Below, one piece after another: positions 1-23,671 of a stretch of DNA of 52,782 bases. The translations under genes were made by a program, and so were the position numbers. Below the pieces are notes generated by a model, which worked only from the letters and a program-made list of their open reading frames with translations, did not search any database and was not told the origin of the DNA. Each line of letters opens with the position of its first letter. The stretch's first letter is position 1. The stretch comes from a virus (lineage: Duplodnaviria; Caudoviricetes), in IMG/VR virus record IMGVR_UViG_3300017776_000018, positions 1 through 52,782 of that record. One strand, given 5' to 3'.

Positions 1-169
1 AAAGCAAACCAATGGCTGCGTCTTGACAGAAGTTCTTTGCTTTCCCTTCATTTTCAGCGTATCTGGTGATCCACGAAGAAACGCTTTGTGGGTCATGTGC
101 CATACCAGTCAAAGCCAAGTTGTAAGAACGCAGGGTGTGAACGGCTTCAATCAAATTGGCTTCGCCCAT
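1..169 (-). CDS. Partial hypothetical protein, divergently transcribed, runs off the window edge
   Basis: ATG at 169 on the minus strand preceded by GGTGGAGG; open to position 1 (MGEANLIEAVHTLRSYNLALTG...). Not in the ORF track. Confidence 0.5.
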   Translation of the reverse strand, partial: MGEANLIEAVHTLRSYNLALTGMAHDPQSVSSWITRYAENEGKAKNFCQDAAIGLL

Positions 170-218
170 GCCTCCACCACAATTACCCTGCTATTTGGCT
201 TTGTTGATTGTGGGATAG

Positions 219-226
219 TTCATATA
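219..226 (+). promoter_or_regulatory. Putative archaeal TATA-like box (TTCATATA)
   Basis: Lies 30 nt upstream of ATG 249; the identical octamer occurs at 22247, 32 nt upstream of the protease ATG. Confidence 0.45.
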
Positions 227-248
227 CGTGGGAGACATGGGAGGGATA

Positions 249-395
249 ATGGGCAAGCACGTTTCAGTTGTTATGCGTGATGCCCTCTTTGAAAAAATGG
301 AGAATGAACGAGGGCGAGAGTCCAAATCATCCTTCATCAATCACGCCATTGCGTTTTATTTTCAAAACAAAGACAAGGTGAAGCATGATGAATAG
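249..395 (+). CDS. Ribbon-helix-helix (CopG/Arc/MetJ-like) DNA-binding protein
   Basis: Manually translated, below the ORF-track cutoff: MGKHVSVVMRDALFEKMENERGRESKSSFINHAIAFYFQNKDKVKHDE. Beta-strand VSVVM, helix, G-x-x-S-K-S turn and helix FINHAI fit the RHH pattern. Alternative start at 237. Confidence 0.7.
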   Translation: MGKHVSVVMRDALFEKMENERGRESKSSFINHAIAFYFQNKDKVKHDE

Positions 396-834
396 ACCTG
401 AAGAAGAACAAAACCAGCAAGCGTTTTATCCTCCGCCATATATGGCTCAAGACACAAACCGAATTGACATTAACCTCATTGCTATGTTGCTATGGCAATC
501 ACTTTTGACGGGCATTTCAGTTGCCGTATCACACATGGGTTGGTATCTCCCTGATGCTGGACCAAGCGAAATGGGGCTTCAATACGGATTGATTACGTTT
601 GGTTTCCTTTGCACCGCTATGGTTCTGTTCCATGTTGGCGGTGTTCGAGACTCCCTCGCAATGCGAGCCGAGTTCACAAAGGAGAACCAAGTGGACAAGT
701 GGCATCGCCAACAACACAGGTTGCAGCAACGACGGGCGCAAAAGCAACAATACTGGCAAGGCAACGGCCAGAATCCCCAATATCCATCTCAGGGACAAAC
801 CTTTGGAGTCCCTAACAACAAAAAAGAAGAATGA
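385..834 (+). CDS. Membrane protein with 2 predicted TM helices and a Q-rich C-terminus
   Basis: Hydrophobic stretches LIAMLLWQSLLTGISVAV and LQYGLITFGFLCTAMVLFHV; AAGGTGA RBS upstream. Confidence 0.75.
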   Translation: MMNRPEEEQNQQAFYPPPYMAQDTNRIDINLIAMLLWQSLLTGISVAVSHMGWYLPDAGPSEMGLQYGLITFGFLCTAMVLFHVGGVRDSLAMRAEFTKENQVDKWHRQQHRLQQRRAQKQQYWQGNGQNPQYPSQGQTFGVPNNKKEE

Positions 835-842
835 TTTGAGGT

Positions 843-1073
843 ATGTTCATGTGGCCTTTCACGACGCAGCAGGAACGACAAACAGAAGCCATGTCAATGA
901 TATTGGCTGAAAACGCATACGAAAGAAAAATGGAAAGGGTCGCAGGATGGGTTCGAACATTTTTAGCATTGCTCGGTGGAATCGCATTGACTTTTGGAAT
1001 CCTATTTGGTTTGGAAATGCTGAACATTTCACCATCCGATGTTTGGAGTTGGATAAAAGGCATTTTCAACTGA
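843..1073 (+). CDS. Small single-pass membrane protein
   Basis: TM segment FLALLGGIALTFGILFGL; amphipathic C-terminus DVWSWIKGIF. Confidence 0.7.
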   Translation: MFMWPFTTQQERQTEAMSMILAENAYERKMERVAGWVRTFLALLGGIALTFGILFGLEMLNISPSDVWSWIKGIFN

Positions 1074-1092
1074 AAATCAATGGGGGGGCATA

Positions 1093-1827
1093 ATGGCTTC
1101 CGCTTTGGTTGCAGGACACATGTTGATGGCCTCCGCTTCCGCATTTTACGCACTTTACCGTATTTTGAGGCCATATCGGGTTGGGATTTACGGGCCATCA
1201 ATGGTCGGTAAAACAACACTTGACCAATACCTCACCGTTCCTGGCGATATTGACCCAATCCCACGTGAGATGAGGACGGCACATGCAAAAGCCGACACCG
1301 CCACAGGCTTTCGAAGTCCACGTGGAACACGAAAACAGGTTCGTATGGTCAAAGAAAAGAAGCCAATAAGAACCACCGATCTTGCTGGCGACCCTATGTT
1401 TCGCAACCTTTGGATTGAGGATATGTTCGGAAGAAATGTTGAATTGGTTATTTTTATGGTGGATCACCGAGCCATGATTTTCAAACAGTTTGCTATGGAT
1501 GCTTCCGCCAGTCTTTCGTATTTGGTGGACAACATGATAAAGAAAGACGTGTCAAAAAACATTTCACGCAAAGCAAAAAAGAACTCAAAGAACTACACGC
1601 CCAAGTTGTTTTGTTTGATGATAAACAAAATGGACTTGTGGTGGGATCCTCAAGCAGCAAGATTGTGGCAATTGGGGCTTCAAAAAGAGCATCCAATTGT
1701 TGCGCCGTTTCGAGACTCGTTGAAGCGATTGCGAAAGGCAGGTATTCGGGCTGAGGTCATGGCTATGTCCTCACAACACGGCATCAACGTTCAAAAGAAC
1801 TTAGTTGATTTATTGGATTCTTTGTGA
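1093..1827 (+). CDS. Small Ras-superfamily (Arf/Sar1-like) P-loop GTPase with N-terminal hydrophobic helix
   Basis: G1 GPSMVGKT, G3 DLAG, strand LVIFMVD, G4 NKMD, G5-like MSSQHG; N-terminal hydrophobic or amphipathic helix. Confidence 0.85.
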   Translation: MASALVAGHMLMASASAFYALYRILRPYRVGIYGPSMVGKTTLDQYLTVPGDIDPIPREMRTAHAKADTATGFRSPRGTRKQVRMVKEKKPIRTTDLAGDPMFRNLWIEDMFGRNVELVIFMVDHRAMIFKQFAMDASASLSYLVDNMIKKDVSKNISRKAKKNSKNYTPKLFCLMINKMDLWWDPQAARLWQLGLQKEHPIVAPFRDSLKRLRKAGIRAEVMAMSSQHGINVQKNLVDLLDSL

Positions 1828-1864
1828 GAAAAGGCTTATGGGGGTGTGAGTTATGGGAGGGCTA

Positions 1865-2830
1865 ATGGCGTATAATCCGTTTGGAGGGTTTAACCCAATG
1901 AACATGCTCTATTCAAGAGGGGTCAAATTAAGTGGCCTTGATGATGAGCAATTGCGCCTCATGTCCACACAAACAGGAATCTCATACGAGTTGTTAAAAT
2001 CACAACAACGTGCTGAGATGGCAAGTGCTGGTTCAACTGGCGACATTGGCGAGGAACAATTGATTCCAACGGTGGAAATCCAACTCAAGTCCGACCCAAA
2101 GAACCCAAAGAAGGCACGTAAGAAAAACATCAAAATGCTTCGTAAGGCACTTCGGCCACCGAACTACAACTTGGGTCTTTTCAAGGTTTATCGCTACAAT
2201 GCAGCGCATGAATGCGCCTGTTGTGGCGTTGATATTCGCAGATTCCTTGAGGGCGACAACGCATACGCTCACATTGTTGATGAAAGAGTTGGACTTTCGC
2301 TGGCCGACATTTATTGGTTTGACGAGGACACAGGAAGTGCCAGAAAACCATTGGCTCGAACTCATGGAGATCACGGCGATGAAATGAACAGTTCACTTTG
2401 CCCTGCACACCTGCATATCTATCACACGCTCAAAACGTTGGTTCAAGAGCATGAGTTGGCTGAGGATGGTTTGCTTATGAAGCCTGTAAGCAAAGGAACC
2501 AAGTTCACCAAAATACCAGGAATGGGTGCGTTTAGAGGGACAAATGCAACAAAAAACCGAAGCACCCCCGAATCCTTGTTGAAATACGAGCAATTCTTTG
2601 CGATGATTCACAAAGACGCTCAACATTCCAAAGGTGTTCAACTGACACAACTTCCAAATCCAACAACAGGCATAGTGGACATTGTTCAAATTACGTTTGA
2701 CCTTCGAGCCTTACAATCGGAAACCGTTATGGCTCAAAGAAATACAATGGCAAACGGAGTTGCTATGCAAAACGCTATCAATGCACAAATGGTAGCACAG
2801 GCACAGGAAACAATTGCACAACAAAGGTGA
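1865..2830 (+). CDS. Hypothetical protein with putative Zn-binding motif
   Basis: HECACCG ... LCPAH ligand pairs; Q/M-rich C-terminus; alternative start at 1853. Confidence 0.7.
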   Translation: MAYNPFGGFNPMNMLYSRGVKLSGLDDEQLRLMSTQTGISYELLKSQQRAEMASAGSTGDIGEEQLIPTVEIQLKSDPKNPKKARKKNIKMLRKALRPPNYNLGLFKVYRYNAAHECACCGVDIRRFLEGDNAYAHIVDERVGLSLADIYWFDEDTGSARKPLARTHGDHGDEMNSSLCPAHLHIYHTLKTLVQEHELAEDGLLMKPVSKGTKFTKIPGMGAFRGTNATKNRSTPESLLKYEQFFAMIHKDAQHSKGVQLTQLPNPTTGIVDIVQITFDLRALQSETVMAQRNTMANGVAMQNAINAQMVAQAQETIAQQR

Positions 2831-2835
2831 GACAC

Positions 2836-3471
2836 ATGGGATGGTTTAGCAGAAACGAAAATACGCAAGGAAGCACACAGTTTGGTTCTCCAACTGGAAT
2901 GGGAATGGGAATGGGAATGGGGATGGGTGCAGGTGCGGCTGGCATGGGAATGGACCCAACTATGATGATGATGCAACAGACTCAGAACCCCATGATGCAA
3001 CAAATGGCGAATGACCCCATCACCGCAACTGCACGTTTGCTTCAACTCAACGATCCTGTTGCACAATTTATCACAACGCAAAACATTGGTTTGCTTATGG
3101 ATTTGGTCGGTGAAGTGGTTCGATTGTCAATCAAAGAGTTCTTCACATCTGTTCAGTTCGTGCAAGACGGGGATAACATCGTTTTGAACACGGCAACTTT
3201 ACCTGCTGCAATCAACACATTATCGCCTGAGAACTTGGGCTTGACAATGACTCGCCTTCAATCATCAGCACAACAAACGCTCGCAATGAACGAACAGCAA
3301 CGACAAATGTTCCTCCAAGCCCATTCTATGGGAATGACAATGAATCCACAACAACAACCAGGGTTCTTCGGTAGTCTTATCGGAGGTATGCTTGGAAACC
3401 AAGTTCAGCAACAGGGTGGATTTGGTCAAACAGTCGCCAAGGGCGCAACAATGGGGGCTGCTGTATTATGA
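2836..3471 (+). CDS. G/M/Q-rich protein with C-terminal glycine-zipper-like segment
   Basis: GGTGA RBS before ATG 2836 (MGWFS); (GM)n run; C-terminus GFFGSLIGGMLG...GFGQTVAKGATMGAAVL. Confidence 0.75.
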   Translation: MGWFSRNENTQGSTQFGSPTGMGMGMGMGMGAGAAGMGMDPTMMMMQQTQNPMMQQMANDPITATARLLQLNDPVAQFITTQNIGLLMDLVGEVVRLSIKEFFTSVQFVQDGDNIVLNTATLPAAINTLSPENLGLTMTRLQSSAQQTLAMNEQQRQMFLQAHSMGMTMNPQQQPGFFGSLIGGMLGNQVQQQGGFGQTVAKGATMGAAVL

Positions 3472-3713
3472 ACAGAAAAGACGAATCACCAAATCAACCC
3501 AACATTTACCACACGACAGTTGAGTTTATGAGTCCCAACAAAATGTTGGTTGAAAGTGCAACGATGATTTACATTATCGCCTTCATGCTTGCTATGTTTG
3601 TTATGTTGGTTTGGCGAGGTTCGAGCCTCAGTTCAACTCAAGTCCTCATGGGCGCATTTGGCTTGCTTTTCACTTTCGCAATTGCAGTTCGGCAATTTGC
3701 TTCTTTTCGGTAG
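3468..3713 (+). CDS. Small 2-TM membrane protein (holin-like topology)
   Basis: 81 aa, two hydrophobic helices; ATGA overlap with the upstream gene. Confidence 0.7.
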   Translation: MNRKDESPNQPNIYHTTVEFMSPNKMLVESATMIYIIAFMLAMFVMLVWRGSSLSSTQVLMGAFGLLFTFAIAVRQFASFR

Positions 3714-3724
3714 CCTCATCGGGA

Positions 3725-3937
3725 ATGAGGCGGTTTAATCCGATACCTTATTCTCCTGTTTTGACTCGTTTTGACCAAGACGGAGATGGCGACTTTGACA
3801 TGGATGATGTCAAAATCTTGCTTGGGAAAAAAAAGGTTAAGCAATGCGTTGCTTTGACAAAATCTGGCGACAGATGCAAGCGGAAGGGCGACCTTGACGA
3901 AAATAACTTGTGCTATTTGCATAAGAAGAAGGAATAA
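3725..3937 (+). CDS. Small protein with EF-hand-like loop and C-terminal C3H Zn-finger
   Basis: DQDGDGDFDMDD Ca-binding-like loop; QCVALTKSGDRCKR...LCYLH. ATG 3725 avoids a long overlap with the upstream gene. Confidence 0.65.
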   Translation: MRRFNPIPYSPVLTRFDQDGDGDFDMDDVKILLGKKKVKQCVALTKSGDRCKRKGDLDENNLCYLHKKKE

Positions 3938-3968
3938 CCCAATAAGCACAATAAGCGTGGGGCAAAGC

Positions 3969-4676
3969 ATGGCTGGTCGGCAGACTCGGAAGAATTGTCC
4001 GTTCTGTCAGCATCCAGAACGGGATTTAATCGAGAAAAAAATCCTTGAAGGCGCACTTGACGTTCAAGACTGTGATTTTGAGAATCAATGGCCTGAAGGA
4101 ACATCTCACCGCCACATGCGAAGGCATTCGGGAGAATACTATAACAATTCCAATTCGCATTGTCCTATTTGCACCGACCCAAACAGGGCAGATATAGAAG
4201 CAGCAATCCTTGAAGGACGTGCGGGTATTGACGACTTCGCAGTTGAGTTGGGGGTTGCCAGCAGCCTCGTTTCAACACACATGGAGAAGCACACAAAGCC
4301 AATCATTCAACAACACGTTCACATCGAGGCTTTGCCGAATGCCATGAAAACGGTGCATGAATCATTGGGTCGTGTTGAGAAAAACATGAACCGTTTGGAT
4401 CGGTTGTTGGGTCGGGTTCTTGACCATGTGGAGAATCAATTTGATGATGAAACCGAACCAATTGAAATGCGTGATGTTGAAACGGCATTGAAGGTTCATC
4501 GAGAAGTGCGTGATACGTTGGTTGAACTGGCAAAGTGGATGGAGAAGGCTGAAACCATTGAGGATAAGCAATCGGTGTCCATCATCAACGTTCTCCAACA
4601 ATTCTATTCCGAGAAGTCGCCCGAAGAATGGGTTGAACTCAAATCACGTTTGGTTGCGTCTGGGGTGATGAGTTGA
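3969..4676 (+). CDS. Tandem CxxC...HxxxH Zn/HTH protein with coiled coil; candidate small terminase or DNA-binding protein
   Basis: Two repeats: CPFCQHPERDLIE...HMRRH and CPICTDPNRADIE...HMEKH, followed by a helical region. Confidence 0.6.
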   Translation: MAGRQTRKNCPFCQHPERDLIEKKILEGALDVQDCDFENQWPEGTSHRHMRRHSGEYYNNSNSHCPICTDPNRADIEAAILEGRAGIDDFAVELGVASSLVSTHMEKHTKPIIQQHVHIEALPNAMKTVHESLGRVEKNMNRLDRLLGRVLDHVENQFDDETEPIEMRDVETALKVHREVRDTLVELAKWMEKAETIEDKQSVSIINVLQQFYSEKSPEEWVELKSRLVASGVMS

Positions 4677-5116
4677 AAATCACAGTTCGCCAATTGATGT
4701 GCAAGGATTCTCCTGAGCATGATGTGATTTTGAATAGCAAAATCCCAAAAGAGGATTGGTCTATTGAGGATTTGATGATGTTCACCAGTTCTGTTGATGT
4801 TGTGGTGCAACGGTGGGCAAATGCCGTTGGTGAACATATGGAATACCCAACTGAGATGATTGGTTCGATATTCGGCTCATTGATTACAACACGTATGCTT
4901 ATTGATGATTTGAAAGTCCTCAAACACAATCCACAGGCTGAGGTCATTTCACTTCTTGATGGAACGCAAATCATTACCGATTTAAAACAGAAAATGTTGC
5001 CCATGTCCAAATCCTATGCACGTGTTCCGTCGTTGGCCCAATGGTATATGGCTTTAGCAAATGAAATTGATTTGGCGTATCGTGTGATTCGAAGGGGGTT
5101 GAAGGATGGTCGTTAG
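4673..5116 (+). CDS. Hypothetical protein
   Basis: 147 aa ORF overlapping both neighbours in a compact operon. Confidence 0.65.
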   Translation: MKITVRQLMCKDSPEHDVILNSKIPKEDWSIEDLMMFTSSVDVVVQRWANAVGEHMEYPTEMIGSIFGSLITTRMLIDDLKVLKHNPQAEVISLLDGTQIITDLKQKMLPMSKSYARVPSLAQWYMALANEIDLAYRVIRRGLKDGR

Positions 5117-6611
5117 CAATCCACGTGAGCCTGTTCTTTGGACTCCAAGAACCCAAGAAATGATGGGAGGTTGGAATCCACGTGAGGTTCTTGACCACGA
5201 CATCAACCCAAATGAGGACGGCGACGGTTTATCTCATCATGGACGTGAAACCCAAGAGGACGCAAGAAGCCGTGATCAGCAAGACCCAAAAAAGCGAAGA
5301 GAACAGGCAATGCGAGAATTGGCGACTCCTATTCCTCATGTCAGCATTCGCCCTGAGAAAATAGACGATACGTTGGGAAGGTCGCCTCAATTTGAGCAAG
5401 AACAACGAATGCTTGAGGCTGGCGTTGGAATGGACTTGAACCGCAACGGCATTGGTTTGTCAAACGGTATGAATGCAGGTTCGGTGCGAAGTGAGGGTCC
5501 AAACATCAAATACGGGCAAAGCAATTCGGTTGTTCCAGCAATGCTTGGGAAGGCAATCAAGAATAATAAATGCAGCAAGTGTGGAAGGGCGGTGTTCATG
5601 GAGGACGACCCAAACAAGTTCTGCATGTTGTGTGAGGCGGGGGTTAAACAAAACAGAAGCCACCCCCCTGTTGAGTTTGACGAACAAATTGACCGACTTA
5701 AAAATAGCAACAATGTGAAAGTTCAGCAGAAAGATTTCAGCGAAGAATGGCAGAAAAAGAATGCCAGCGAGGACATTTTCGAGCAATCATGGGATAGCAT
5801 CAGCAAAGGCAAGCGACGATACAAAGGTCGCCACATGTATGATGATGAGGAATCCGATGAGGACGAGCGCAAGTCAAAGAAAAAGCGCAAGCGAAAGAAG
5901 AAGCGTGAGGGTAAGCGAAAGAAGGCAGCACGTGGAGGTCGCCAGCCCAAATCAATGACCACCAGACGAAAGGGCAATGTCGAAACCGATGTGGATCGTG
6001 GTTCACGTCGTCAAGCCTTCCACCCCAACCTTCATAGCGAGGCGATTAGGGGTGTCGGACGTTCTCGAACAGACCGAATCCCTCTCCGACTTCGTGATCC
6101 TATTGCATGGGAACGTAAGAAAGCAAACGAGCGATTGCGACGACAAGTGGGTTCACTACCAGCAGGTTTGACTCACCATGCTGATACAAGAGGCATGGGA
6201 ACAAAGCGTGGTGCAATTCAGGGCGGTTCTATTGGAAGCGGAACAAAAATGCCAACAGTTGCCCGTATGGGAACATCAACAAAGCGATTCTCAAGGGATG
6301 CCGTAGGCGACCCTCTCAGCACCCACGACCCATTGTTCAACAAATCGGATATTGAAAAATCAAAGTTGAGAATCACCCGTTCCGAACTCATGGCTATGAA
6401 ACGTAAGGTTGAGAAATTGATTCAACAACTCAACAAATTGACCAAGGCTACGCCAGAACTTGGCAACGAAGGCAAGGTTGGCGCACAGGCAAATAGCGAT
6501 ACGGCTTCATCCCCAACAGGCGCAACAAAATTGAATGAAGAGGAAGAACCGTATCGGGCTTTTGTTGATATGGCTTTGGCACAGGAGATGGGTCTTGTAG
6601 GCAAGAAGTGA
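5106..6611 (+). CDS. Modular basic protein, putative internal head protein
   Basis: Central CxxC...CxxC module, K/R-rich tract, FEQSWDSISKG motif and several xxK|A/S sites. Confidence 0.7.
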   Translation: MVVSNPREPVLWTPRTQEMMGGWNPREVLDHDINPNEDGDGLSHHGRETQEDARSRDQQDPKKRREQAMRELATPIPHVSIRPEKIDDTLGRSPQFEQEQRMLEAGVGMDLNRNGIGLSNGMNAGSVRSEGPNIKYGQSNSVVPAMLGKAIKNNKCSKCGRAVFMEDDPNKFCMLCEAGVKQNRSHPPVEFDEQIDRLKNSNNVKVQQKDFSEEWQKKNASEDIFEQSWDSISKGKRRYKGRHMYDDEESDEDERKSKKKRKRKKKREGKRKKAARGGRQPKSMTTRRKGNVETDVDRGSRRQAFHPNLHSEAIRGVGRSRTDRIPLRLRDPIAWERKKANERLRRQVGSLPAGLTHHADTRGMGTKRGAIQGGSIGSGTKMPTVARMGTSTKRFSRDAVGDPLSTHDPLFNKSDIEKSKLRITRSELMAMKRKVEKLIQQLNKLTKATPELGNEGKVGAQANSDTASSPTGATKLNEEEEPYRAFVDMALAQEMGLVGKK

Positions 6612-6616
6612 TTGTC

Positions 6617-8455
6617 ATGCCGTTGGTTGAATTAGATCGGTATCTCATTCGTAAGGGCTACGGTGTTTTCAACATTCACGATTTCATCAACGCCATGCTC
6701 GGTGCTGATAGCGTCGAAGAAGGATATTCTCAATTGCAGCAAAACCACCACGACCTCAGCCATGAGAACTTTGCTGGCGTTGAAGCCGATGCGGTTCAAT
6801 TGGCGTTTCAAATGCAAATGGGCGGATTAACCGAACAGGATAAAGAAATCATTGACCAAAACGGCCATCCTGGTCAAAAGGGTGATTTTAACCAATCATC
6901 GCAACTTTGGTTTCAAACGTTTCAAAAGGCTGTGAACATAGGTGCGCCTCTCGTCAATGAGGCCATCTCAAAAACAAATGCAATCAATCGCAAACGTGCT
7001 GCTGAGGCAGGACACCCGCCGCCAATTGACCTCCCAATGGCTTTTGTTCAAGACAACGGGAATTATGTCGCCGTTCCTGCATGGCGTAGTGCCGTTCAAG
7101 GCTACAAAGAGGATGGAACGCACAACAGGCAGGGTGCGCTTATCACCCAACGTCTTAGCCGATTGACTCACAAACCAGAAGCGTATGCTCGGCCTTACAA
7201 CATCGGTTTAGAAACGTTGAGATCGGAAAAATACCCAAATGTCAAGTTCAAAGACAAGTTCATGGATGAGGTGTTTCCAAACATTCTTCACGGTGATTCG
7301 TTATACATTCGGGACGATAACCTTCGAAATGATTTTGCTTTTGCAGTTCAAAGTGTAAAGCAAAAATACCCTTACTTGCCGTTTGAACAGTTGCAGGGTA
7401 TGGCCTTACAATCACTACGAAGCCTTCCTCAATTCAATAAGTTCGCTGGAATCCGTCATGGCGATGGCCTCAAATACGGAACGCATTCGGAAGAAGCGGT
7501 CAATCAAATGCAAGTTGAACAAAGGCAAGAAAACGCTAATTCGTATGATGAATTGCTCAATTTCATTCATCCTGATATGCGAGAACACGCATCGTTTAGG
7601 CTCACAGGCAACCAAGCATACCACACCGCTACGCCATCACGAAAAATGAAGCGATTGTTTGAACAACATCACGGTTGGGATGAAGAAACGACAAATAACG
7701 TGTATCAAAACGCATATTCAGGCAAGTTCTCTCATCTCAAAAACAGTCGTGATAAGTTGATGGCGGCAGTTCGTGAGCAAGAAATGTTAGATGGAAAGCC
7801 GCCTCAATGGGCGGGTGATGCAATCATGCCACAGGGAGCATCCATCGGTTCTCCTGTTGATGAACAACCATCTCCCCAAATGGAAGAAAGGCCACCTGTT
7901 CAAGAAGCCATTGCGACACCGCCACCTTATCCAGTTCGACCCGACCCAGAACCCCCTAAAATGAATCAGCACATGTCTGGTGCAACGCCAATACCTGTGG
8001 CGAGTCCAGCATCGCCGCCGCCTCAAATGCAACCACAAAACCGACCTCAACCCCCTATGCAACCCCTAAACGCTTATCCCTCAACCTCTCCTGCCGTTCA
8101 AAATACGGGACGTGGGGTTTTGAACAATTTAATGACAAGGCTTGGTTATGCCTACGAATCATTGTTTCCATCCTTCGGAAAAACCGACATGTCCAATGAA
8201 GAGGTATTGACTGAAATGCTTGAGAATGTTCAGTTGGAAATCGCAAAGAAAGAAGTGGTGCAAACCATTTTCACAAAATCTCATCAGTCAATCAGTTCTA
8301 TTGCCGATGTTTCAACTATTGCTAACAGAATAAATCGTCCCAATTCCGACATTGTTTCAATTTATCATAGCCGTGGCGATTGGGAGAACGTAGCAAAGAC
8401 GTTTGGAATGACGCATAAAGAAGTTCAAATGGTGAAGGTGATTTTCAATGAATGA
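6617..8455 (+). CDS. Hypothetical protein with Pro-rich linker and C-terminal HTH-like domain
   Basis: Long ORF; C-terminus GDWENVAKTFGMTHKEVQMVK is HTH-like; N-terminal YLIRK|G. GTG 6608 is an alternative start. Confidence 0.7.
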   Translation: MPLVELDRYLIRKGYGVFNIHDFINAMLGADSVEEGYSQLQQNHHDLSHENFAGVEADAVQLAFQMQMGGLTEQDKEIIDQNGHPGQKGDFNQSSQLWFQTFQKAVNIGAPLVNEAISKTNAINRKRAAEAGHPPPIDLPMAFVQDNGNYVAVPAWRSAVQGYKEDGTHNRQGALITQRLSRLTHKPEAYARPYNIGLETLRSEKYPNVKFKDKFMDEVFPNILHGDSLYIRDDNLRNDFAFAVQSVKQKYPYLPFEQLQGMALQSLRSLPQFNKFAGIRHGDGLKYGTHSEEAVNQMQVEQRQENANSYDELLNFIHPDMREHASFRLTGNQAYHTATPSRKMKRLFEQHHGWDEETTNNVYQNAYSGKFSHLKNSRDKLMAAVREQEMLDGKPPQWAGDAIMPQGASIGSPVDEQPSPQMEERPPVQEAIATPPPYPVRPDPEPPKMNQHMSGATPIPVASPASPPPQMQPQNRPQPPMQPLNAYPSTSPAVQNTGRGVLNNLMTRLGYAYESLFPSFGKTDMSNEEVLTEMLENVQLEIAKKEVVQTIFTKSHQSISSIADVSTIANRINRPNSDIVSIYHSRGDWENVAKTFGMTHKEVQMVKVIFNE

Positions 8456-9419
8456 TGATTTGATTTTGCGAGCAAGGCTACATCAGCAAGGATGGTCGGA
8501 CGATCAGATTGAGAAATACATCGGACAACGCTTTGTTCAAGGGGCTAAAAATCTGGCTGGTAAATACAACCAATCAAGAGCCGCAGGGCATCAAGGTGCA
8601 TCGCTTGGGCAACGTTTCTTACCTGGTGGCAAACAACGCTACATGGACGCATCAGGTAAGGGCGTAAGGGATTACAACAAAGAGATGAAAGACCAAGCCG
8701 CAACAAAACAACAGGAGGCTCGAAATGCACAAGCCGCCCGTATGCAAGGAAAAGGCGTAGTTCCATCAACAAGTGCGGAAGCCCCATTGATGAGAGATCC
8801 AGTCAAAGACCCTGCAACGGGGCAAGGAACAACTCGCACCGATCTTGCGGCAGCAACCGTAGGAGATGGTTCACAAAACGGCTTATCAAATGTGCCTGAT
8901 GAAGTCAAAAACACAACAACAACTCAAACCATGCCTGATGGTTCCCAAAACGTGTCAAACGTTCAAGACATCACGATGAACGCAAACGCAAACGCAAACC
9001 CACAACAACCTGCCGCACCACAACAACCTGCCGCACCTCAACAACCTGCCGCACCTCAACAACCTGCAACGGGTGTTGATTCAAATGCACGTGCGGCTGC
9101 TCAACAGGCAATGGTGCAACAGGATGCGGCTACAATCCAGCAAGGCGAAGGTGGCCCTAAGCAATCATGGTTGAAAAACCGTTCTTTCGGAGGGAAAATA
9201 GCAGATATTTTTTCGGGTGGCCTTACGGCGGGTTTTGGTGAAACAGGCGTTATTGGACGAAACAAAGCAAATCAACAGTCGCAACAACAAAACCAAAAAT
9301 ACCAAGACGCACTACGACGACAAACCAACATGGCAAAATCAATGGAACTTTACCGTGATGTGATTTCACGCCGTCAAATAATCCAAGAACGCAACACGAC
9401 TCATAATCTCCGACGGTGA
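8448..9419 (+). CDS. Q/A-rich low-complexity protein
   Basis: AAGGTGA RBS; PQQPAA repeats. Confidence 0.75.
   Translation: MNDDLILRARLHQQGWSDDQIEKYIGQRFVQGAKNLAGKYNQSRAAGHQGASLGQRFLPGGKQRYMDASGKGVRDYNKEMKDQAATKQQEARNAQAARMQGKGVVPSTSAEAPLMRDPVKDPATGQGTTRTDLAAATVGDGSQNGLSNVPDEVKNTTTTQTMPDGSQNVSNVQDITMNANANANPQQPAAPQQPAAPQQPAAPQQPATGVDSNARAAAQQAMVQQDAATIQQGEGGPKQSWLKNRSFGGKIADIFSGGLTAGFGETGVIGRNKANQQSQQQNQKYQDALRRQTNMAKSMELYRDVISRRQIIQERNTTHNLRR
9000..9068 (+). repeat. 18-bp coding tandem repeat (PQQPAA, about 3.8 copies)
   Basis: CC(A/T)CAACAACCTGCCGCA units. Confidence 0.9.
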
Positions 9420-11761: not shown

Positions 11762-13198
11762 ATGTCCGAAGCCATGAATCAACTTGCAGCACAGGTTGAT
11801 TTTGAAATGGGGCGGAAGGACTTCAAATACTTCTTCGAAGAGATTTGTGGAAAGTTTGATGAGAAGTTCCCTTGGATTCTCACCAAGTTTCATCAAGAAT
11901 GGTTTGATATGTCCGAAAACAACAGCAAAACCTGTATCATTGCCAGCCGTGATCATGGCAAGTCCGTGTTTTACCGTGTTTATCTCCTATGGAAAATGGC
12001 TTACAATCCAGGCACAGAAGTTCTGTTTTTCTCACACAGTCAGCACCAGTCCATTGAACACATGGGCAAAATGAATGAACTCATCGAAGCCATTCCTGCA
12101 CTACAACATCTCAAACCAAAGCGAGGATGGGCGAAGCAGAAGTTCAAGTTCACCAACAAATCATCCATCTCGGCTATGTCCGTCGGCAAAGCAGTTCGTG
12201 GGGCGCACCCTCAAATCGTAGTGCTTGACGATATTTTGTCAAGTGAAGCCCAAACGCAACTCAAGCACATATCATCATGGTTTTACACGGCACTTCTTCC
12301 TGTTCTCCACCACACCGCCCAACTGTGCATTGTTGGAACTCCGTTTTCCTACACCGATCTTTACGCTGAACTCAAGAAGTTGAAGTCCTATGCGGTTCGT
12401 GAATATCCCGCCATCAATGAACAAACAGGCGAACCATTGTTCCCTGAACGCTGGTCGTTGGAAGCATTGAACAACCGTCGAAACGACATGACCTCAATTG
12501 CATTCACACGTGAATACCTGTGCAAACCGATTGCCAGCGAAGCGAGTCTGTTCCCTGAAGAGGTGTTGAATAAAGTCAAGGATGAGGAATTAGCATTGTC
12601 CTATTATCCACATGATGGTGAATCCTACAACTATTACATCGGTTGGGATCCTGCAATCTCAGCAGATAGGAGAGCCGACTACACGTGCATGATGGTTGTT
12701 GCCGTTGATGAAAACAAAAACAAACACATTATCCACACACACCATGAGAAGGGGATGGACTTCTCATCTCAAATTGACAAAATCATTGAACTTAACGCCA
12801 GATTCAATCCAGTTATCATTGAACTTGAGACAAACAACTTCGCATTGGCGTTTAATCAAGTGCTAAACGAAATCAGCGATTTGCCGATAAAACCCTTCAA
12901 TATGAGCCGAATGAAGAAAGAGGCTTTAATTCATACCCTCCAACTGCAATTTGAACAGGGCAAGTTGTCAATACCCTACAAAGACGAAGGAGGGACACGG
13001 AGATTGATGAACACTTTATTGACTGAACTCTCCACGTTCACCATGTTGGACAACGGACGCATGGAAAGTTTAGGGGGCCACGACGACATGGTTATGGCAC
13101 TTGCATTGAGCGTTCAAGCAACCAAGGAATATCGAGATAGTATCGTGATTTTAGATGCTGATGTTTGGCAAAACAGGTTAGGGTGGGCAAATGTTTGA
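11762..13198 (+). CDS. terL: Terminase large subunit
   Basis: Walker A ASRDHGKS, Walker B IVVLDD, coupling motif VGTP, nuclease IGWDPA and HDDMVMALAL; GAGGTGA RBS. Confidence 0.95.
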   Translation: MSEAMNQLAAQVDFEMGRKDFKYFFEEICGKFDEKFPWILTKFHQEWFDMSENNSKTCIIASRDHGKSVFYRVYLLWKMAYNPGTEVLFFSHSQHQSIEHMGKMNELIEAIPALQHLKPKRGWAKQKFKFTNKSSISAMSVGKAVRGAHPQIVVLDDILSSEAQTQLKHISSWFYTALLPVLHHTAQLCIVGTPFSYTDLYAELKKLKSYAVREYPAINEQTGEPLFPERWSLEALNNRRNDMTSIAFTREYLCKPIASEASLFPEEVLNKVKDEELALSYYPHDGESYNYYIGWDPAISADRRADYTCMMVVAVDENKNKHIIHTHHEKGMDFSSQIDKIIELNARFNPVIIELETNNFALAFNQVLNEISDLPIKPFNMSRMKKEALIHTLQLQFEQGKLSIPYKDEGGTRRLMNTLLTELSTFTMLDNGRMESLGGHDDMVMALALSVQATKEYRDSIVILDADVWQNRLGWANV

Positions 13199-14429
13199 GG
13201 GTCGAATTGAGGGCGTGTTTGGCGTTGAGTCGCCAGAAGATGTGCTAAAGTTGCTTGATGAGAAGTTGATTTCACAGGAAATCAAGAATAATCAGCAAGA
13301 GGCCAAGTTGCTTCAACAAAAAAAGAAGGCGGCGGCAAAACAACCCCAAGAAGGGGCAGGAAGCCCACGTGAGGATGCGGCCATTGAAGGTCTTGATGCA
13401 GATAACATGGGTGGGGGAGATACCCAACCTGGAACTCAGGTTCAAACAGAATCCTCGCCTTTGCCCATGACAAAGACTTGGTTTGCTGATAACTTCGGAA
13501 TGCAAGGCAACGAGATTGTTGATTTGCTCATCAAGTCTGGGCGTGATGAATTGGTGTCAATGATTCAGCCCTTGATTGTCCAAGAACGAATGGCTTTGCT
13601 CAAATCATATCCCTCGGTTTCACCAGATTTAGTTCATACCTTGCCCTTCACCGATTTTGATTGGGAGATTTTGCAGAAGAACCACGAATCATTGGCGATA
13701 CCATTCCGAAGGTTTGTCAAGAGTTGGACGGATGGCAACATGGATGCGTATGAGATTTGGGCGAGCCGCATATCAAAATCGGAACGCCTCAGCATCAATG
13801 AGCGCAAGGTGTTGGAGAAAACACAAGCGGTTCTTGACAGTCATGGAAGCATGAACGCTCAAGCCCTGCAAACACATGGAGTTCCAGAAACCACCCGAAA
13901 AATTGCGATGCTGATTAAATCACACGGTTTCCTCTATGACATTGAGCCATTTGGTTTAGGGTCAAAGCACAATGACAAAGGATTCTTTTACGGACTCAAA
14001 AAGCATGATGTGTTCGTCAAAGACGCAGGGGCTTTGGTTGGAGATCTCTATGAGATGGGCGGCTCAATTGAAATCAGTCCACGTGGAACTCCACGCTTGA
14101 TTCTCCCTTTCAATTCAAAAGTCTGTAAGGAATATGCTCATGCCCTCAACAATGAAATGGGCGTGAGAGGAATTATAGCCGAAGGCGATGGGTTGGTGAT
14201 TGAGGGGGAAGCCTCAGTCGTTAAGGCGATTGATGTTTCTTTGCCTCATTTGAAGGAAAAGAAGGGAGAAGTGAACATTTTGCGAAAGGCACTTGAGGAT
14301 GATGAAAAAGCCATCATGTGCTTGACTTACGCCCATTCAAAACCACAAAAACAAGTTCGCTTGTTGAAGTCTTGGAACCTATCGCTCGAAGCATTTGAAG
14401 AGATGAAGGAGGCCGTAGCAAATGGCTGA
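13191..14429 (+). CDS. Protein with wHTH-like region and degenerate LAGLIDADG-like C-terminal domain
   Basis: VGDLYEMGGSIEISPRGTPRL...LVIEG...SLPHLKEKK resembles the LAGLIDADG fold; the catalytic Asp position is Gly. Confidence 0.6.
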   Translation: MFEGRIEGVFGVESPEDVLKLLDEKLISQEIKNNQQEAKLLQQKKKAAAKQPQEGAGSPREDAAIEGLDADNMGGGDTQPGTQVQTESSPLPMTKTWFADNFGMQGNEIVDLLIKSGRDELVSMIQPLIVQERMALLKSYPSVSPDLVHTLPFTDFDWEILQKNHESLAIPFRRFVKSWTDGNMDAYEIWASRISKSERLSINERKVLEKTQAVLDSHGSMNAQALQTHGVPETTRKIAMLIKSHGFLYDIEPFGLGSKHNDKGFFYGLKKHDVFVKDAGALVGDLYEMGGSIEISPRGTPRLILPFNSKVCKEYAHALNNEMGVRGIIAEGDGLVIEGEASVVKAIDVSLPHLKEKKGEVNILRKALEDDEKAIMCLTYAHSKPQKQVRLLKSWNLSLEAFEEMKEAVANG

Positions 14430-16236
14430 TAAGGAGAGGATGGAACGTCTATTTTCCGCCATTGGCGTTGATATGGAGAGGCACACAACGCCTATGCCGA
14501 CAATGCCATTGTTTCAATCTGGCATCCAAGAACCGCCTTTGTTGCAGGGTATTACCATTCCCGCCCTATACGCTGCAACATTTGAATGCGTAGTTCTCCG
14601 ATCCATTCTCAACCACCTTGCAGTTGAAACATTCCGTAAAGGGTATGGATGGAAGCCAAAGTTTGTTGTCAAGTGCAGGGAATGTGATGAAGAATACCAT
14701 CAAGAAGTTGAAACCTGCAAGTCCTGTGGCGGTGAGGTTCGCAAAGCCGACAAAGGGCAAATTGAATACGCTCAAGCGTTGCTTGAGAGCAAGAACGGCA
14801 TGATGCAGAACTTCGTGGAAATCATGAAAGAAATCGAAATGGATTTGAACGTCGTTGATGATGCTTACCTTATCCTCACAAAAGAATACTTTGTGGACCC
14901 AGATACGAAGAAGGTCATGTTTTTCCGTGTTAAGGAGATTACACGTGCCGACCCTATTTTCATGCGTATGCTTGCCGATAAGCGAGGTGTGCGTGGCGGA
15001 AGCCAATACACCAGCCTTGTTGATAGGACATTCCGCACCAGCGACCCAAAGGACAAATGCCCCACAACGGGAATGCCTGTTGTTCCTATTCACTACATGA
15101 ACCTCGCTGGTGTTGGAAAAGGACAAGTCTATACCGAAGGCGAAGTTATTCACGTCAGCAAATGGTCGCCATCCAAATTGTATGGCCGTAGCCCTGTTGC
15201 GACGATGTGGCGACAGGTGAACACACTTATTGCGATGGATAACTACGTCTATTCGGCATATCAAAAGAAGCGTATGCCCCGTGGCGTGATGGTCATTAAA
15301 TCGTCCAACATGGAAACCGTTGAGCGAACCGCACGAAACATTCAGGAACACCTTGAGCGTGATCCTTCTTACATTCCAACCATCGGTGTTGAAACCGAAT
15401 CTGGGCGTGGCGGTCTTGAATACGTGCGAATGATGGACACTCTCGAAGAACTGCAATACATCCCTATCAAAGACGACATTCGCCAGCGTATCGCTGCATT
15501 CTTTGGCGTGTCCAACGTATTCATGAATGACGTTTCAGGTGGTGGCCTTAACAATGAGGGTATGCAAATTGTTGTGAGCAACCGAGCCGTTGCCTACGCT
15601 CAATCTATTTACAACCGCATTTTGTTCCCTCAAATTGTTGAAGCATTTGAAGTGAGCGAATGGGAATTGATTCTCAACCCGCATGAGGAAGAAGATGAAA
15701 TCATGCAACTCCGACGTGATGAGATGGCTATTCGCAACATGATGCAGATGAAACAGGCTGGATATGATGCAAGCCTACGCGATGGTATAGACGATAAAAT
15801 CCTACACTTTGACTTCAAGCAACCCGATCCGCAGGAAGTTGCTGCCGCCCAAGCCGCCCAACAACAGGCGCAACAGGGTGGCGGTGGCGGTCAAGCACCA
15901 CCAGTTCAAAAGACGGATGAATTGATTGACGACCCAGAATTGATGTTCAAGCGAACCAATTTTGATGCAAGCAGGGGGTCAATTCCATTCTCGGATTCCC
16001 TCGCTACAACTGCTGGAACAGGTTTGCCTCCTTTGAGAACCATTAGCCAAAACACCAGGAATAGCGGGGGTTCAAGCCCCGATATGGTTCGAAGGGTTGA
16101 TGGTGCGCCAACGGGGGCATCCGTGAAAACCGATAAACGAGAACACAAAACGCCTCAAGAAAAAGCCATTGACCACCAAATCAAGGAAACAGAAAAACGC
16201 AAAGGTTTGGGCGGTTCAAGGGGCAATAGTCAATAA
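14422..16236 (+). CDS. Portal protein with Zn-ribbon insertion
   Basis: Position after terL; EVIHVSKWSPSKLYGRSP, PRG and IAAFFGVSNVFM portal motifs; CRECD...CKSCGG insertion. Confidence 0.9.
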   Translation: MADKERMERLFSAIGVDMERHTTPMPTMPLFQSGIQEPPLLQGITIPALYAATFECVVLRSILNHLAVETFRKGYGWKPKFVVKCRECDEEYHQEVETCKSCGGEVRKADKGQIEYAQALLESKNGMMQNFVEIMKEIEMDLNVVDDAYLILTKEYFVDPDTKKVMFFRVKEITRADPIFMRMLADKRGVRGGSQYTSLVDRTFRTSDPKDKCPTTGMPVVPIHYMNLAGVGKGQVYTEGEVIHVSKWSPSKLYGRSPVATMWRQVNTLIAMDNYVYSAYQKKRMPRGVMVIKSSNMETVERTARNIQEHLERDPSYIPTIGVETESGRGGLEYVRMMDTLEELQYIPIKDDIRQRIAAFFGVSNVFMNDVSGGGLNNEGMQIVVSNRAVAYAQSIYNRILFPQIVEAFEVSEWELILNPHEEEDEIMQLRRDEMAIRNMMQMKQAGYDASLRDGIDDKILHFDFKQPDPQEVAAAQAAQQQAQQGGGGGQAPPVQKTDELIDDPELMFKRTNFDASRGSIPFSDSLATTAGTGLPPLRTISQNTRNSGGSSPDMVRRVDGAPTGASVKTDKREHKTPQEKAIDHQIKETEKRKGLGGSRGNSQ

Positions 16237-22278: not shown

Positions 22279-23643
22279 ATGGCGACCACACTCGACCTTC
22301 AAACGGCATCGTGGAATGCCGAAGGTTCGGACTTCTTGTTGAAGTCTGTTGGAAGTGCTGGTGAACTTTACGTCGCTGGCTACGCATCTGTTGATATGGT
22401 GGACAAGCAAGGAGATAGAATCCCTACCGCCGCACTAAAGAAGGCATTCGGCCAATTCATGGATAACAAAGCGTTTCGAAATGTTCAGTTGGCTCATTCT
22501 GGTATTCAAGTTGGTGAGGTCGTTGCAGACCACACCGATTCCCAAGGTCGTGTTTGGAAGTCCGAAGTGGACGACCACGGCCTGTTCGTCGTGTGCAAAA
22601 TCCGCAACGACATTCAAAAAGCACGTGAAGTGCAAAAGCAAATCCGCAATGGCGATTTGCGAGCGTTCTCGATTGGCGGTCAAGCCTTGTTTCGTGTTAG
22701 CAAAACGACACCAGAACTTGGAAGCCATCGAGAGATTACCGATCTTGAATTGCATGAAATTACGCTATGCAAGAAAGGTATCAACCCCGAATCAACCTAC
22801 ACAATACTGAAAATGGAAGATGATAACATGAGCAACACAGAAGTTTTGAACGAAATTAAGGCTGGACTGAGCGAAGTTCTCAAAGAACTGAGCGAAAAAG
22901 AAGAAACCAAAGAGGACAAATCCTACAAAGAGGACAAATCCTACAAAGGCGACATGATGCGAGAAGAGGAAGAGGGACACACCCAAAAGTCCGAAGAAGC
23001 AGCCCTTGACTACATCACCACACTTGAGAAGTTTGCTCACGAATCTGGTGTGGACTTGAACGGCCTTCGTGATCACTTCGGTTTGGAGAAGGCTTACCTT
23101 CTCGAACAAGGTCGTGGCGGCTACTCTCACCGTGGACAAGGTGATGAAGTCGGGTCTGGCGAGGATGCTTCCGAGCCAGCATACCCCTCCCTTCCAAGTC
23201 CTGGTGGCAACCAATACGTCATCAAATCCCCAAGTGTTCCAAACATGAACATGAATGCACCTTCTGGCAACCAAAACGTTGTGAAGTCCTTGACTCCTGA
23301 GATGTTGGAGAAGGGCTACCGCACCTACGCTGCTCTCCGTGATGAAGAAGCAGTTAAGGGACTGGTTGAGAAGGAATGGCAAGACCGCTACCACGCTGAA
23401 ACGGCTCACGCTCTTGAAGTTCGCAAGCAAAACGATGTTGGAGTCCAACTGAACTCCCTACGTGAAGAGATTGCTATGCTCAAGTCCGAGAACGCATCCC
23501 TACAAAAGAGCGAAGTTGCACCTTCGACTCCTTCCACCTCCATTCGTGTGCCAACACATGGCGAGTTTGCCCAGATGGGCAATGACCTTGATGGCTGGCG
23601 AGCAGCAGAAGCACTTGCTCAACGTGCGTTGCGAGGCGAATGA
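22279..23643 (+). CDS. HK97-type prohead maturation protease fused to a scaffold-like C-terminal region
   Basis: VAGYASVDMVDKQGD, catalytic His (LAHSG), Ser (AFSIGG) and LHEITL...INPES; acidic coiled-coil C-terminus; directly upstream of the MCP. Confidence 0.9.
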   Translation: MATTLDLQTASWNAEGSDFLLKSVGSAGELYVAGYASVDMVDKQGDRIPTAALKKAFGQFMDNKAFRNVQLAHSGIQVGEVVADHTDSQGRVWKSEVDDHGLFVVCKIRNDIQKAREVQKQIRNGDLRAFSIGGQALFRVSKTTPELGSHREITDLELHEITLCKKGINPESTYTILKMEDDNMSNTEVLNEIKAGLSEVLKELSEKEETKEDKSYKEDKSYKGDMMREEEEGHTQKSEEAALDYITTLEKFAHESGVDLNGLRDHFGLEKAYLLEQGRGGYSHRGQGDEVGSGEDASEPAYPSLPSPGGNQYVIKSPSVPNMNMNAPSGNQNVVKSLTPEMLEKGYRTYAALRDEEAVKGLVEKEWQDRYHAETAHALEVRKQNDVGVQLNSLREEIAMLKSENASLQKSEVAPSTPSTSIRVPTHGEFAQMGNDLDGWRAAEALAQRALRGE

Positions 23644-23652
23644 AACAACAAC

Positions 23653-23671
23653 ATGGAGATGATGAAAAATG
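23653..23671 (+). repeat. 19-nt leader/RBS repeat, copy 1
   Basis: ATGGAGATGATGAAAAATG, identical to 24831-24849. Confidence 0.85.

Follow-up and report, generated by a model that had tools for sequence, protein, structure and literature searches.

A predicted Arf/Sar1/SRbeta-branch small GTPase in a conserved gene module of magrovirus-type archaeal tailed viruses

The locus and its GTPase

We examined the left end of a 52,782-nucleotide (nt) stretch of tailed-virus DNA (positions 1 to 52,782 of IMG/VR record IMGVR_UViG_3300017776_000018; "the window" hereafter means this whole stretch), where a small GTPase of 244 amino acids (aa) is encoded at nt 1093-1827 among genes for small predicted membrane proteins and larger soluble proteins. 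The gene stands third in a row of five: g2 (385-834; 149 aa), with two predicted transmembrane (TM) helices; g3 (849-1073; 74 aa), with one; the GTPase; g5 (1853-2830; 325 aa), a soluble protein with a CxxC...CxxH arrangement; and g6 (2836-3471; 211 aa), rich in Gln, Met and Gly. Coordinates refer to the + strand unless stated otherwise, and the starts of the open reading frames (ORFs) in the cluster were placed by comparison with relatives. Every long ORF of the window lies on the + strand, and the cluster opens a one-directional run of genes that exceeds 52 kb and holds the entire structural module, including the large terminase TerL (11762-13198), the portal protein (14422-16236), the prohead protease (22279-23643) and the HK97-type major capsid protein (MCP; 23669-24817). 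A reading of the same DNA made from its letters and translations (the sequence-only reading) had described an Arf/Sar1-like GTPase in a membrane-protein operon. All of the co-oriented ORFs that it listed are present on the + strand, but they do not make up a bounded operon and instead begin the longer block.

G1 to G4 are intact in the GTPase. An N-terminal hydrophobic helix (residues 2-25, nt 1096-1167) is followed by G1 (GPSMVGKTT; residues 34-42, nt 1192-1218), the switch I or G2 threonine (T62), G3 (DLAG; residues 96-99, nt 1378-1389), G4 (NKMD; residues 178-181, nt 1624-1635) and a G5-like SSQ (S226-Q228). We aligned 33 family members that are 41-95% identical to the window protein and found G34, G39, K40, T41, T42, T62, D96, G99, N178, K179 and D181 to be invariant. 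Across a larger set of full-length homologues, the Walker A form of G1, GxxxxGK[ST], is present in 94 of 99 and NKxD in 95 of 99. The AlphaFold2 (AF2) model of the protein (pLDDT 84.4, pTM 0.83) shows the helix at residues 2-25 preceding a Ras-like fold. Judged by G1, the switch I threonine, G3, G4 and the modelled fold, the protein is predicted to belong to the Ras superfamily (P-loop, TRAFAC class). The motifs and helix noted in the sequence-only reading were thus borne out, with G2 intact as well. We found no longer, fused form of the GTPase, which is weak evidence.

Sequence profiles and structure comparisons both pointed to the Arf side of the superfamily. The top match of the family in a profile search against the PDB was 8oun_A (E 1.1e-5), followed by Arl8/Arl10 proteins; "Arf family GTPases are present in Asgard archaea" (bioRxiv 10.1101/2024.02.28.582541) gives 8oun as one of its entries. 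With Foldseek, the GTPase model had at least 500 PDB matches at E ≤ 0.001, among which Rab, Rap and Arl proteins came first. VIA-align, which is independent of Foldseek, ranked Arf6 (Z 17.4, twice), Sar1 (17.0) and SRbeta (16.7) highest, then a Lokiarchaeal RagA-like protein (16.5) and Arl2 (16.0), with the best Rab at 14.8. SRbeta and the RagA-like protein lie within 1 Z unit of the top, so this ranking does not separate the sub-branches.

Family models gave a fainter signal. The window protein had only sub-threshold matches in Pfam (best GTP_EFTU, E 6e-4), with Arf absent at E ≤ 1, and NCBIfam returned nothing for it. The Pfam Arf model (PF00025) matched 17 of the 33 family members at E ≤ 0.1 (best 3.7e-4), and its cut-off was passed by nine of the ten distant full-length relatives that we scanned after finding them with the family profile. 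The SRPRB model (PF09439) was matched by five of the 33 members, at best with E 0.021, which is below its cut-off. The switch II signature DxGGQxxFRNLW is present in 70 of 99 GTPase relatives. From these profiles, alignments and models, the protein can be assigned to the Arf/Sar1/SRbeta branch of small GTPases as a member of an isolated, very divergent and virus-specific family, and the predicted Arf/Sar1-like identity in the sequence-only reading is upheld by both the top sequence match and the top structures.

The protein departs from Arf proteins in four respects. An amphipathic N-terminal helix is described as the defining feature of Arf proteins in the Asgard study (bioRxiv 10.1101/2024.02.28.582541), and such a helix had been supposed here too. 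Residues 1-22 of the window protein contain no Asp, Glu, Lys or Arg, and the helix has a mean Eisenberg hydrophobicity of 0.5-0.58 and a hydrophobic moment of 0.07-0.11. Eighty homologue helices have a mean moment of 0.14, and 51 of the 80 lack any charged residue at positions 2-19. By hydropathy alone, residues 2-22 reach a Kyte-Doolittle mean of only 1.2-1.5. As calculated from sequence, the helix is uniformly hydrophobic and anchor-like, as in SRbeta, rather than amphipathic in the Arf manner.

The second departure concerns the catalytic site. The usual catalytic Gln after DxxG is replaced by Asp100 in the window protein (DLAGD; residues 96-100, nt 1378-1392). Of the 99 homologues, 70 have Gln at this position, 20 have Asp, two have Glu, and Ala and His occur once each, while the motif was not found in 5; every one of the 20 proteins with Asp shares 71% identity or more with the window protein. 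The rate or control of hydrolysis may therefore differ in this subclade. The stretch from switch I to G3 (T62 to D96) is also long compared with Arf, and an extra helix and a conserved basic loop, SRKAKKxxKKY, lie between G3 and G4 (approximately residues 124-171). The basic loop may add a membrane-binding patch.

Conservation of the gene order and a portable core

The gene order around the GTPase is conserved among related loci, well beyond what chance would give. In tblastn searches of 21 IMG/VR loci found via the GTPase, g1 to g7, g9 and g10 were collinear in all 21, while g8 was detected in 9 and g11 in 20. These loci include near-duplicates and represent about 12 independent lineages. Insertions follow g9 in several of them, so we take g9 as the end of the tight syntenic block. 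Four further loci from genome collections (L025-L028) kept the order, with g7 and g9 present. Two of these, L027 and L028, are the most divergent loci of the window's type (GTPase approximately 40% identical), and the g1 gene was undetected in both. In the same two loci, an ORF of 65-67 aa that by eye looks AbrB/SpoVT-type lies between the GTPase and g5 (L027 3708-3911; L028 6767-6964).

Two more distant GTPase subfamilies, which we call P0109-type and P0115-type, occur on viral contigs of similar size. In P0109-type loci a g5 homologue follows the GTPase (hidden Markov model E 1e-14 to 1e-20), and one locus had weak matches to g6 and g2. The P0115-type GTPase is approximately 30% identical to that of the window and was found on 140 IMG/VR stretches, which makes its virus group a very abundant one. 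All ten P0115-type loci examined encode, in order, a 2-TM protein, a protein of approximately 74 aa with a helix plus a TM stretch, the GTPase, a Cys protein of approximately 225 aa and a protein of approximately 235 aa that starts with MGLFG. Profile-profile comparison with hhalign identifies the MGLFG protein as a g6 homologue (92%, E 5.8e-7). It gives 54% and E 1.3e-4 for the Cys protein, probably a homologue of g5, in which the motifs KKxxKxxxKxLxP, YxYN..C..CG and C..H align with those of g5. The 2-TM protein matched g2 weakly (hhalign E 0.0066, probability 5.7%) and is a match by position; for g3, hhalign gave no support, and its analogue is likewise placed by position only.

In the P0115-type group the module lies elsewhere, between the capsid gene and a homologue of window ORF 27171-28757, within the head-tail block. 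Example loci are L037, L084, L095 and L108, with the module at approximately 6200-9100 in each; L037 has a SAP-domain ORF just upstream of it (Pfam E 4.4e-10). The P0115-type loci have no equivalent of g7 after g6, and g1, g8 and g9 are likewise not kept. By these comparisons the portable core is g2 (2 TM), g3 (1 TM), the GTPase, g5 and g6, with g1, g7 and g8 outside it, and the five-gene unit has moved within the structural block with its order kept. This retention of order after relocation is the strongest evidence in our analysis and is the reason that we treat the core as one functional unit. The sequence-only reading had asked whether the whole cluster was conserved as a unit; the order held in 21 of 21 loci, but only five genes proved portable.

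The family is widespread on viral contigs. We collected 105 homologous GTPase protein clusters (E ≤ 1e-3), on contigs of up to approximately 117 kb. With 155 clusters of g5 and the 140 P0115-type stretches, these counts suggest that the module is a core gene set rather than an accessory. A search of 1.84 billion representative proteins with the GTPase profile gave 97 matches at E ≤ 1e-3, one of them false. The false positive, P0118, is a repeat protein of 2180 aa whose E-value of 2.7e-31 came from a score summed over 23 weak repeated matches, and we rejected it; summed scores on repeat proteins are not homology. A search of 201 Poseidoniales genomes with the family profile gave no cellular homologue; the sole match (1 of 201) was the viral contig of the single-cell genome described below. 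The GTPase, g5 and g9 had no match among 50,697 phage records. In four relatives, the GTPase is 45-60% identical to that of the window compared with 75-81% for MCP and TerL. By this measure the GTPase evolves faster than the core virion genes.

The neighbouring genes yielded few family assignments. Among g1 to g10, the only Pfam match at threshold was that of a loop in g8; NCBIfam matched none of the neighbours of the GTPase apart from a motif in g8, and neither the cluster proteins nor eight ORFs further downstream had a match in PHROGs. Screening the cluster against the 5027 defence-system models of PADLOC gave only two weak, chance-level matches, both on g9. In repeat scans of window positions 1-5200 we saw nothing of note.

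The upstream membrane proteins were characterised by hydropathy and alignment. In g2, hydrophobic 19-mer stretches lie at residues 27-50 and 63-88 and are followed by a basic, Q-rich C-terminal tail. A conserved N-terminal helix in g3 precedes its single TM stretch (within the Kyte-Doolittle span 33-64, numbered from a start at 843). A third protein of this kind, g7 (3468-3713; 81 aa), is approximately holin-sized; hydropathy and alignment show one merged hydrophobic span at residues 25-80, which we read as two predicted TM helices. A complex prediction for g2, g3, g7 and the GTPase scored 0.00; as controls were not run, it is uninformative either way.

The two larger core proteins were characterised by alignment. 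g5 is always downstream of the GTPase and has a mean column identity of 65% in its alignment; in 14 of 21 loci it is the cluster protein with the greatest identity to its counterpart in the window. C121, C124, C183 and H186 are invariant and aligned with the CxxC...CxxH of the divergent subfamily, and this Cys/His tetrad is probably a zinc site. None of the 155 homologous clusters of g5 has a Pfam domain or an informative name; there was no significant PDB profile match and no usable ESM Atlas match, and the AF2 model (pLDDT 47) was unusable. g6 starts with MGWF, followed by a low-complexity region rich in Gly, Met and Gln, a conserved central domain, a conserved GxxxGxxxG stretch that resembles a glycine zipper and, at the C terminus, a small hydrophobic tail. 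It has many homologues but had no match in PDB, Pfam or ESM Atlas.

Outside the core, g1 (249-395; 48 aa) has a beta-alpha-alpha pattern and sub-threshold matches to DUF6290 (Pfam, E 0.014) and RelB_antitoxin (E 0.018). One of 12 family members matched DUF6290, and a PDB profile search gave no match. We consider it, on this weak evidence, a putative ribbon-helix-helix (RHH) DNA-binding protein. The rightward block begins with g1, because a divergent ORF lies upstream of it both in the window, where the ORF (2-169, - strand) is truncated at the left end, and in locus L001, where its full-length homologue of 169 aa occupies 4580-5089. The minus-strand ORF marks a divergent promoter region before g1. 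An RHH regulator at the head of the cluster had been proposed from the sequence, and while the position of the gene stood, the RHH assignment is weak.

The slot occupied by g8 (3725-3937; 70 aa) is variable. Family matches identified an EF-hand-like acidic loop, for which Asp-B-Hydro_N scored 26.8 bits where its cut-off is 23, together with a Cys/His zinc motif (DUF5763, E 1.6e-4 in Pfam; GvpO_arch_Nterm, E 2e-7 in NCBIfam). By alignment, g9 (3969-4676; 235 aa) has two CxxC...HxxxH units in tandem and, after them, a long helical region; it probably binds DNA or forms oligomers. A unit of approximately 50 aa (CxxC.HP.R...E...G ... H...H) is duplicated within the protein, which had no PDB or Pfam match of note. 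The layout of a DNA-binding domain plus an oligomerising helix resembles that of a small terminase subunit, yet g9 lies 7 kb upstream of TerL. Beyond it are g10 (4673-5116) and g11 (5106-6611; 501 aa); the latter has conserved termini, an extremely basic Lys/Arg-rich centre and no family match, and was the gene kept in 20 of 21 loci.

The virus and its host

The window represents approximately half of the genome of a magrovirus-type tailed virus whose hosts are marine Poseidoniales (Marine Group II) archaea; the IMG/VR completeness estimate for the record is 50%. All 11 matches of the MCP in a phage collection were archaeal tailed viruses. Eight of these were records of the Haloarcula viruses HVTV-1/HVTV-2, HCTV-1/HCTV-16 and HCTV-5, and the remaining three were viruses assigned to Methanofastidiosa and Methanomassiliicoccales. 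In a published capsid tree, Druskaviridae stand among marine archaeal viruses including magroviruses (PMC8651126). The host link came from a relative with the same gene order, a 106-kb contig from a single-cell genome titled "uncultured Candidatus Poseidoniales archaeon", in which the MCP and TerL are 81% and 78% identical to those of the window. We use "magrovirus-type" on the grounds of this host link, contig sizes of 80-117 kb and the capsid relationship.

The 5-kb stretch that carries the module was also present in 23 DNA runs from 14 coded studies, with 22 of the 23 labelled as viral metagenomes; four of the runs are possibly the source sample. Host DNA or a chimeric assembly, named in the sequence-only reading as a possible refutation, is excluded by the archaeal-virus capsid matches, the relatives with the same order and the viral-metagenome runs, since many viral contigs, independent of one another, show the same arrangement, as do virus-fraction metagenomes. 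Some short contigs with the whole viral module had been binned in metagenome-assembled genomes titled Parvibaculum sp. (L025, L028) or Promethearchaeati archaeon (L027). These bins are most likely binning errors and not true hosts.

Other features of the window and its relatives were recorded in passing. Two giant ORFs (38008-43029 and 43034-50608; 1673 and 2524 aa) probably encode tail fibre or adhesin proteins, and the product of the second has a sub-threshold concanavalin-like match (Laminin_G_3). A family B DNA polymerase was detected in two of five related long contigs (G001-G005) and was undetected in the one of the five that is rated 100% complete (108 kb). As the polymerase is detectable in only two of the five, replication modules differ between relatives.

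A possible role in egress and comparison with known systems

Several lines of reasoning led us to rank egress first among the possible functions. The virions of tailed viruses have no membrane, and release is the best-known late membrane function of these viruses. Because the virions lack a membrane and the genes lie inside the structural block, the most likely target of the membrane proteins is the host membrane at a late stage of infection. Lysis cassettes stand just before the terminase genes in lambda and between the head and tail genes in P2, and the two genomic positions of the module mirror these two placements. The archaeal host has no peptidoglycan, and scanning 40 ORFs of the window against Pfam revealed no endolysin-like domain, in agreement with the sequence-only reading. 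It is the late membrane role, the missing endolysin domain, the peptidoglycan-free host and the cassette-like positions that place egress at the head of the list, and a GTP-switched late membrane machine for egress is our best guess, albeit a tentative one.

Such a machine might work as follows. [quoted passage not shown] In its GTP state it would recruit g5 and g6 to a site on the membrane. Late in infection, alongside virion assembly, the complex would perforate or remodel the membrane so that progeny could leave the peptidoglycan-free host, and this step would be timed or triggered by the GTP/GDP state. In its fullest form, this reading would give magrovirus-type viruses, which are among the most abundant of the surface ocean, an Arf/Sar1-like device in which the anchored GTPase works with the two small membrane proteins, the zinc protein g5 and the low-complexity protein g6 and which, upon a GTP trigger, opens the host membrane or makes it bud for release; we regard that complete picture as conceivable but doubtful.

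A number of points weigh against egress. The egress role, membrane binding, GTP binding and the contacts between the proteins are all deduced from sequence comparisons, and late expression is deduced from gene position alone. The effector role given to g5 and g6, which have no recognisable fold or family, is a guess. The fast evolution of the GTPase fits an interaction with the host as well as it fits egress, and a simple hydrolysis timer is hard to square with the Asp at the catalytic position (the 20 homologues of 99 noted above). In the P0115-type group, the upstream membrane proteins are analogues by position only. Moreover, cultured haloviruses with the same capsid type gave no match to the GTPase, g5 or g9; if the module is an egress system, it is therefore not a general one for archaeal tailed viruses.

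The same evidence can be read in other ways. The module always lies in the morphogenesis block, either upstream of TerL or, in the P0115-type group, after the capsid gene, and it behaves as a core gene set; in the window's group it is directly followed by g9, a possible DNA-binding Zn/coiled-coil protein. All of this would suit a membrane-bound platform at which the assembly of capsids, the packaging of DNA or the joining of heads to tails is tethered to the inner face of the host membrane, with a GTP-dependent checkpoint and without membrane breakage. We consider such a platform unlikely, as the module evolves faster than MCP and TerL and is lacking in related haloviruses with the same capsid type, and no tailed virus is known to need a membrane platform for head assembly. 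Non-lytic remodelling in the manner of ArvA or Sar1, yielding vesicles or tubules as decoys, for export or as a virus-induced compartment, is suggested by the nearest structural relatives, Arf6 and Sar1, which act in vesicle formation. It also has an archaeal precedent, since the small GTPase ArvA with its Zn-ribbon partner ArvC drives vesicle formation in Euryarchaeota (PMC10927574), and g5 has a probable zinc site. The host may lack a system of its own, as ArvB/OapB was not found in 61 Poseidoniales genomes, with Haloferax volcanii and Methanosarcina acetivorans positive as controls. However, g1 to g10 gave no OapB match, the viral helix is not amphipathic like those with which Arf, Sar1 and ArvA bend membranes, and the benefit to a lytic tailed virus is unclear, so that we hold vesiculation to be improbable.

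We give a similarly low standing to takeover of the host envelope or superinfection exclusion, for example through a block of the receptor or of DNA entry, whose aim would be to shut out rival viruses or to prevent the adsorption of progeny to cells already infected. Small membrane proteins and a fast-evolving GTPase fit a role at the host interface. Such genes are usually variable accessories, whereas this module was present in all related contigs examined, keeps its five-gene architecture across deep divergence and lies in the structural block rather than in an early region, and the defence-model screen gave nothing beyond the two chance-level matches on g9. Finally, the genes might be neighbours without a shared function, with the GTPase acting alone on, for example, a host target and the flanking late genes unrelated to it. 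The linkage of these proteins is known here from genes alone, and RHH, g7, g8 and g9 are not kept in the most divergent group. The core order that is kept after relocation would be hard to explain without selection on the unit, and we judge this explanation very improbable.

The literature that we searched held no paper linking magroviruses or archaeal viruses with such a GTPase, although supplementary gene tables were outside that search. [quoted passage not shown] The automatic annotation of the Joint Genome Institute (JGI) does label some family members "GTPase SAR1 family protein". GTPases of this kind had been described as non-standard in tailed viruses, and our searches agreed, with no small-GTPase match in PHROGs.

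A 2024 review calls the main egress players of archaeal tailed viruses "completely uncharacterized" (PMC10791045), and the magrovirus group is reported to be third in ocean abundance (PMC5434244). The module thus offers a concrete, conserved gene set for the question of egress in an abundant group of ocean viruses. It also places isolated, fast-evolving Arf-branch GTPases with a predicted membrane-inserting helix in viruses of non-Asgard archaea, and such a viral family bears on the origin and spread of these switches. If the egress reading is true, this would be the first GTPase-controlled egress system known in any prokaryotic virus and a virus-borne relative of the eukaryotic coat-recruiting switches.

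Among known systems, holin cassettes share with the module their place in a late block and their small proteins of one to three TM helices, to which g2, g3 and g7 correspond by hydropathy. The viral unit differs in that it includes a GTPase and two large soluble proteins, and neither an endolysin nor a spanin was found in the ORFs scanned; in a peptidoglycan-free host an adjacent cell-wall hydrolase may be dispensable. The Ras, Rab and Ran proteins of giant viruses are likewise virus-encoded and have the same fold (mimivirus Rab, Z 14.8), and the 50 structural matches listed by BFVD all belong to giant viruses of eukaryotes. Those proteins are close copies of host-type Rab, Ran and Ras, whereas the present family is isolated, belongs to a prokaryotic tailed virus and has no homologue in the 201 genomes of the order of its host.

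The ArvA-ArvB-ArvC system also sets a small GTPase at the archaeal membrane beside a zinc protein and an uncharacterised protein (PMC10927574). The ten cluster proteins gave no Pfam match at E ≤ 1 to ArvB (OapB/DUF2073) or ArvC (DUF2072), and ArvA, which we compared by description only, is described with an amphipathic helix (PMC10927574).

The Arf family itself (Arf, Arl and Sar1, with the Asgard ArfR of PDB 8oun and 8oum) has the same fold and supplied the best structural and PDB sequence matches. It shares with the viral proteins an N-terminal helix before the G domain and the switch II signature found in 70 of the 99 relatives. Set against Arf, the viral helix is uniformly hydrophobic, the stretch from switch I to G3 is longer, an extra helix and a basic loop lie between G3 and G4, the window protein falls below the Pfam Arf model, its subclade has Asp in place of the catalytic Gln, and the gene is that of a tailed virus. 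SRbeta has an Arf-like G domain behind an N-terminal membrane anchor. Its architecture is the closest to that of the viral GTPase, with VIA-align Z values of 16.7, 15.9 and 15.2, whereas SRPRB matched only the five of 33 members given above, no SRalpha-like partner was recognised, and the context is viral rather than secretory. Viewed across these comparisons, the system would appear to be an Arf/Sar1/SRbeta-type membrane switch in an unexpected carrier.

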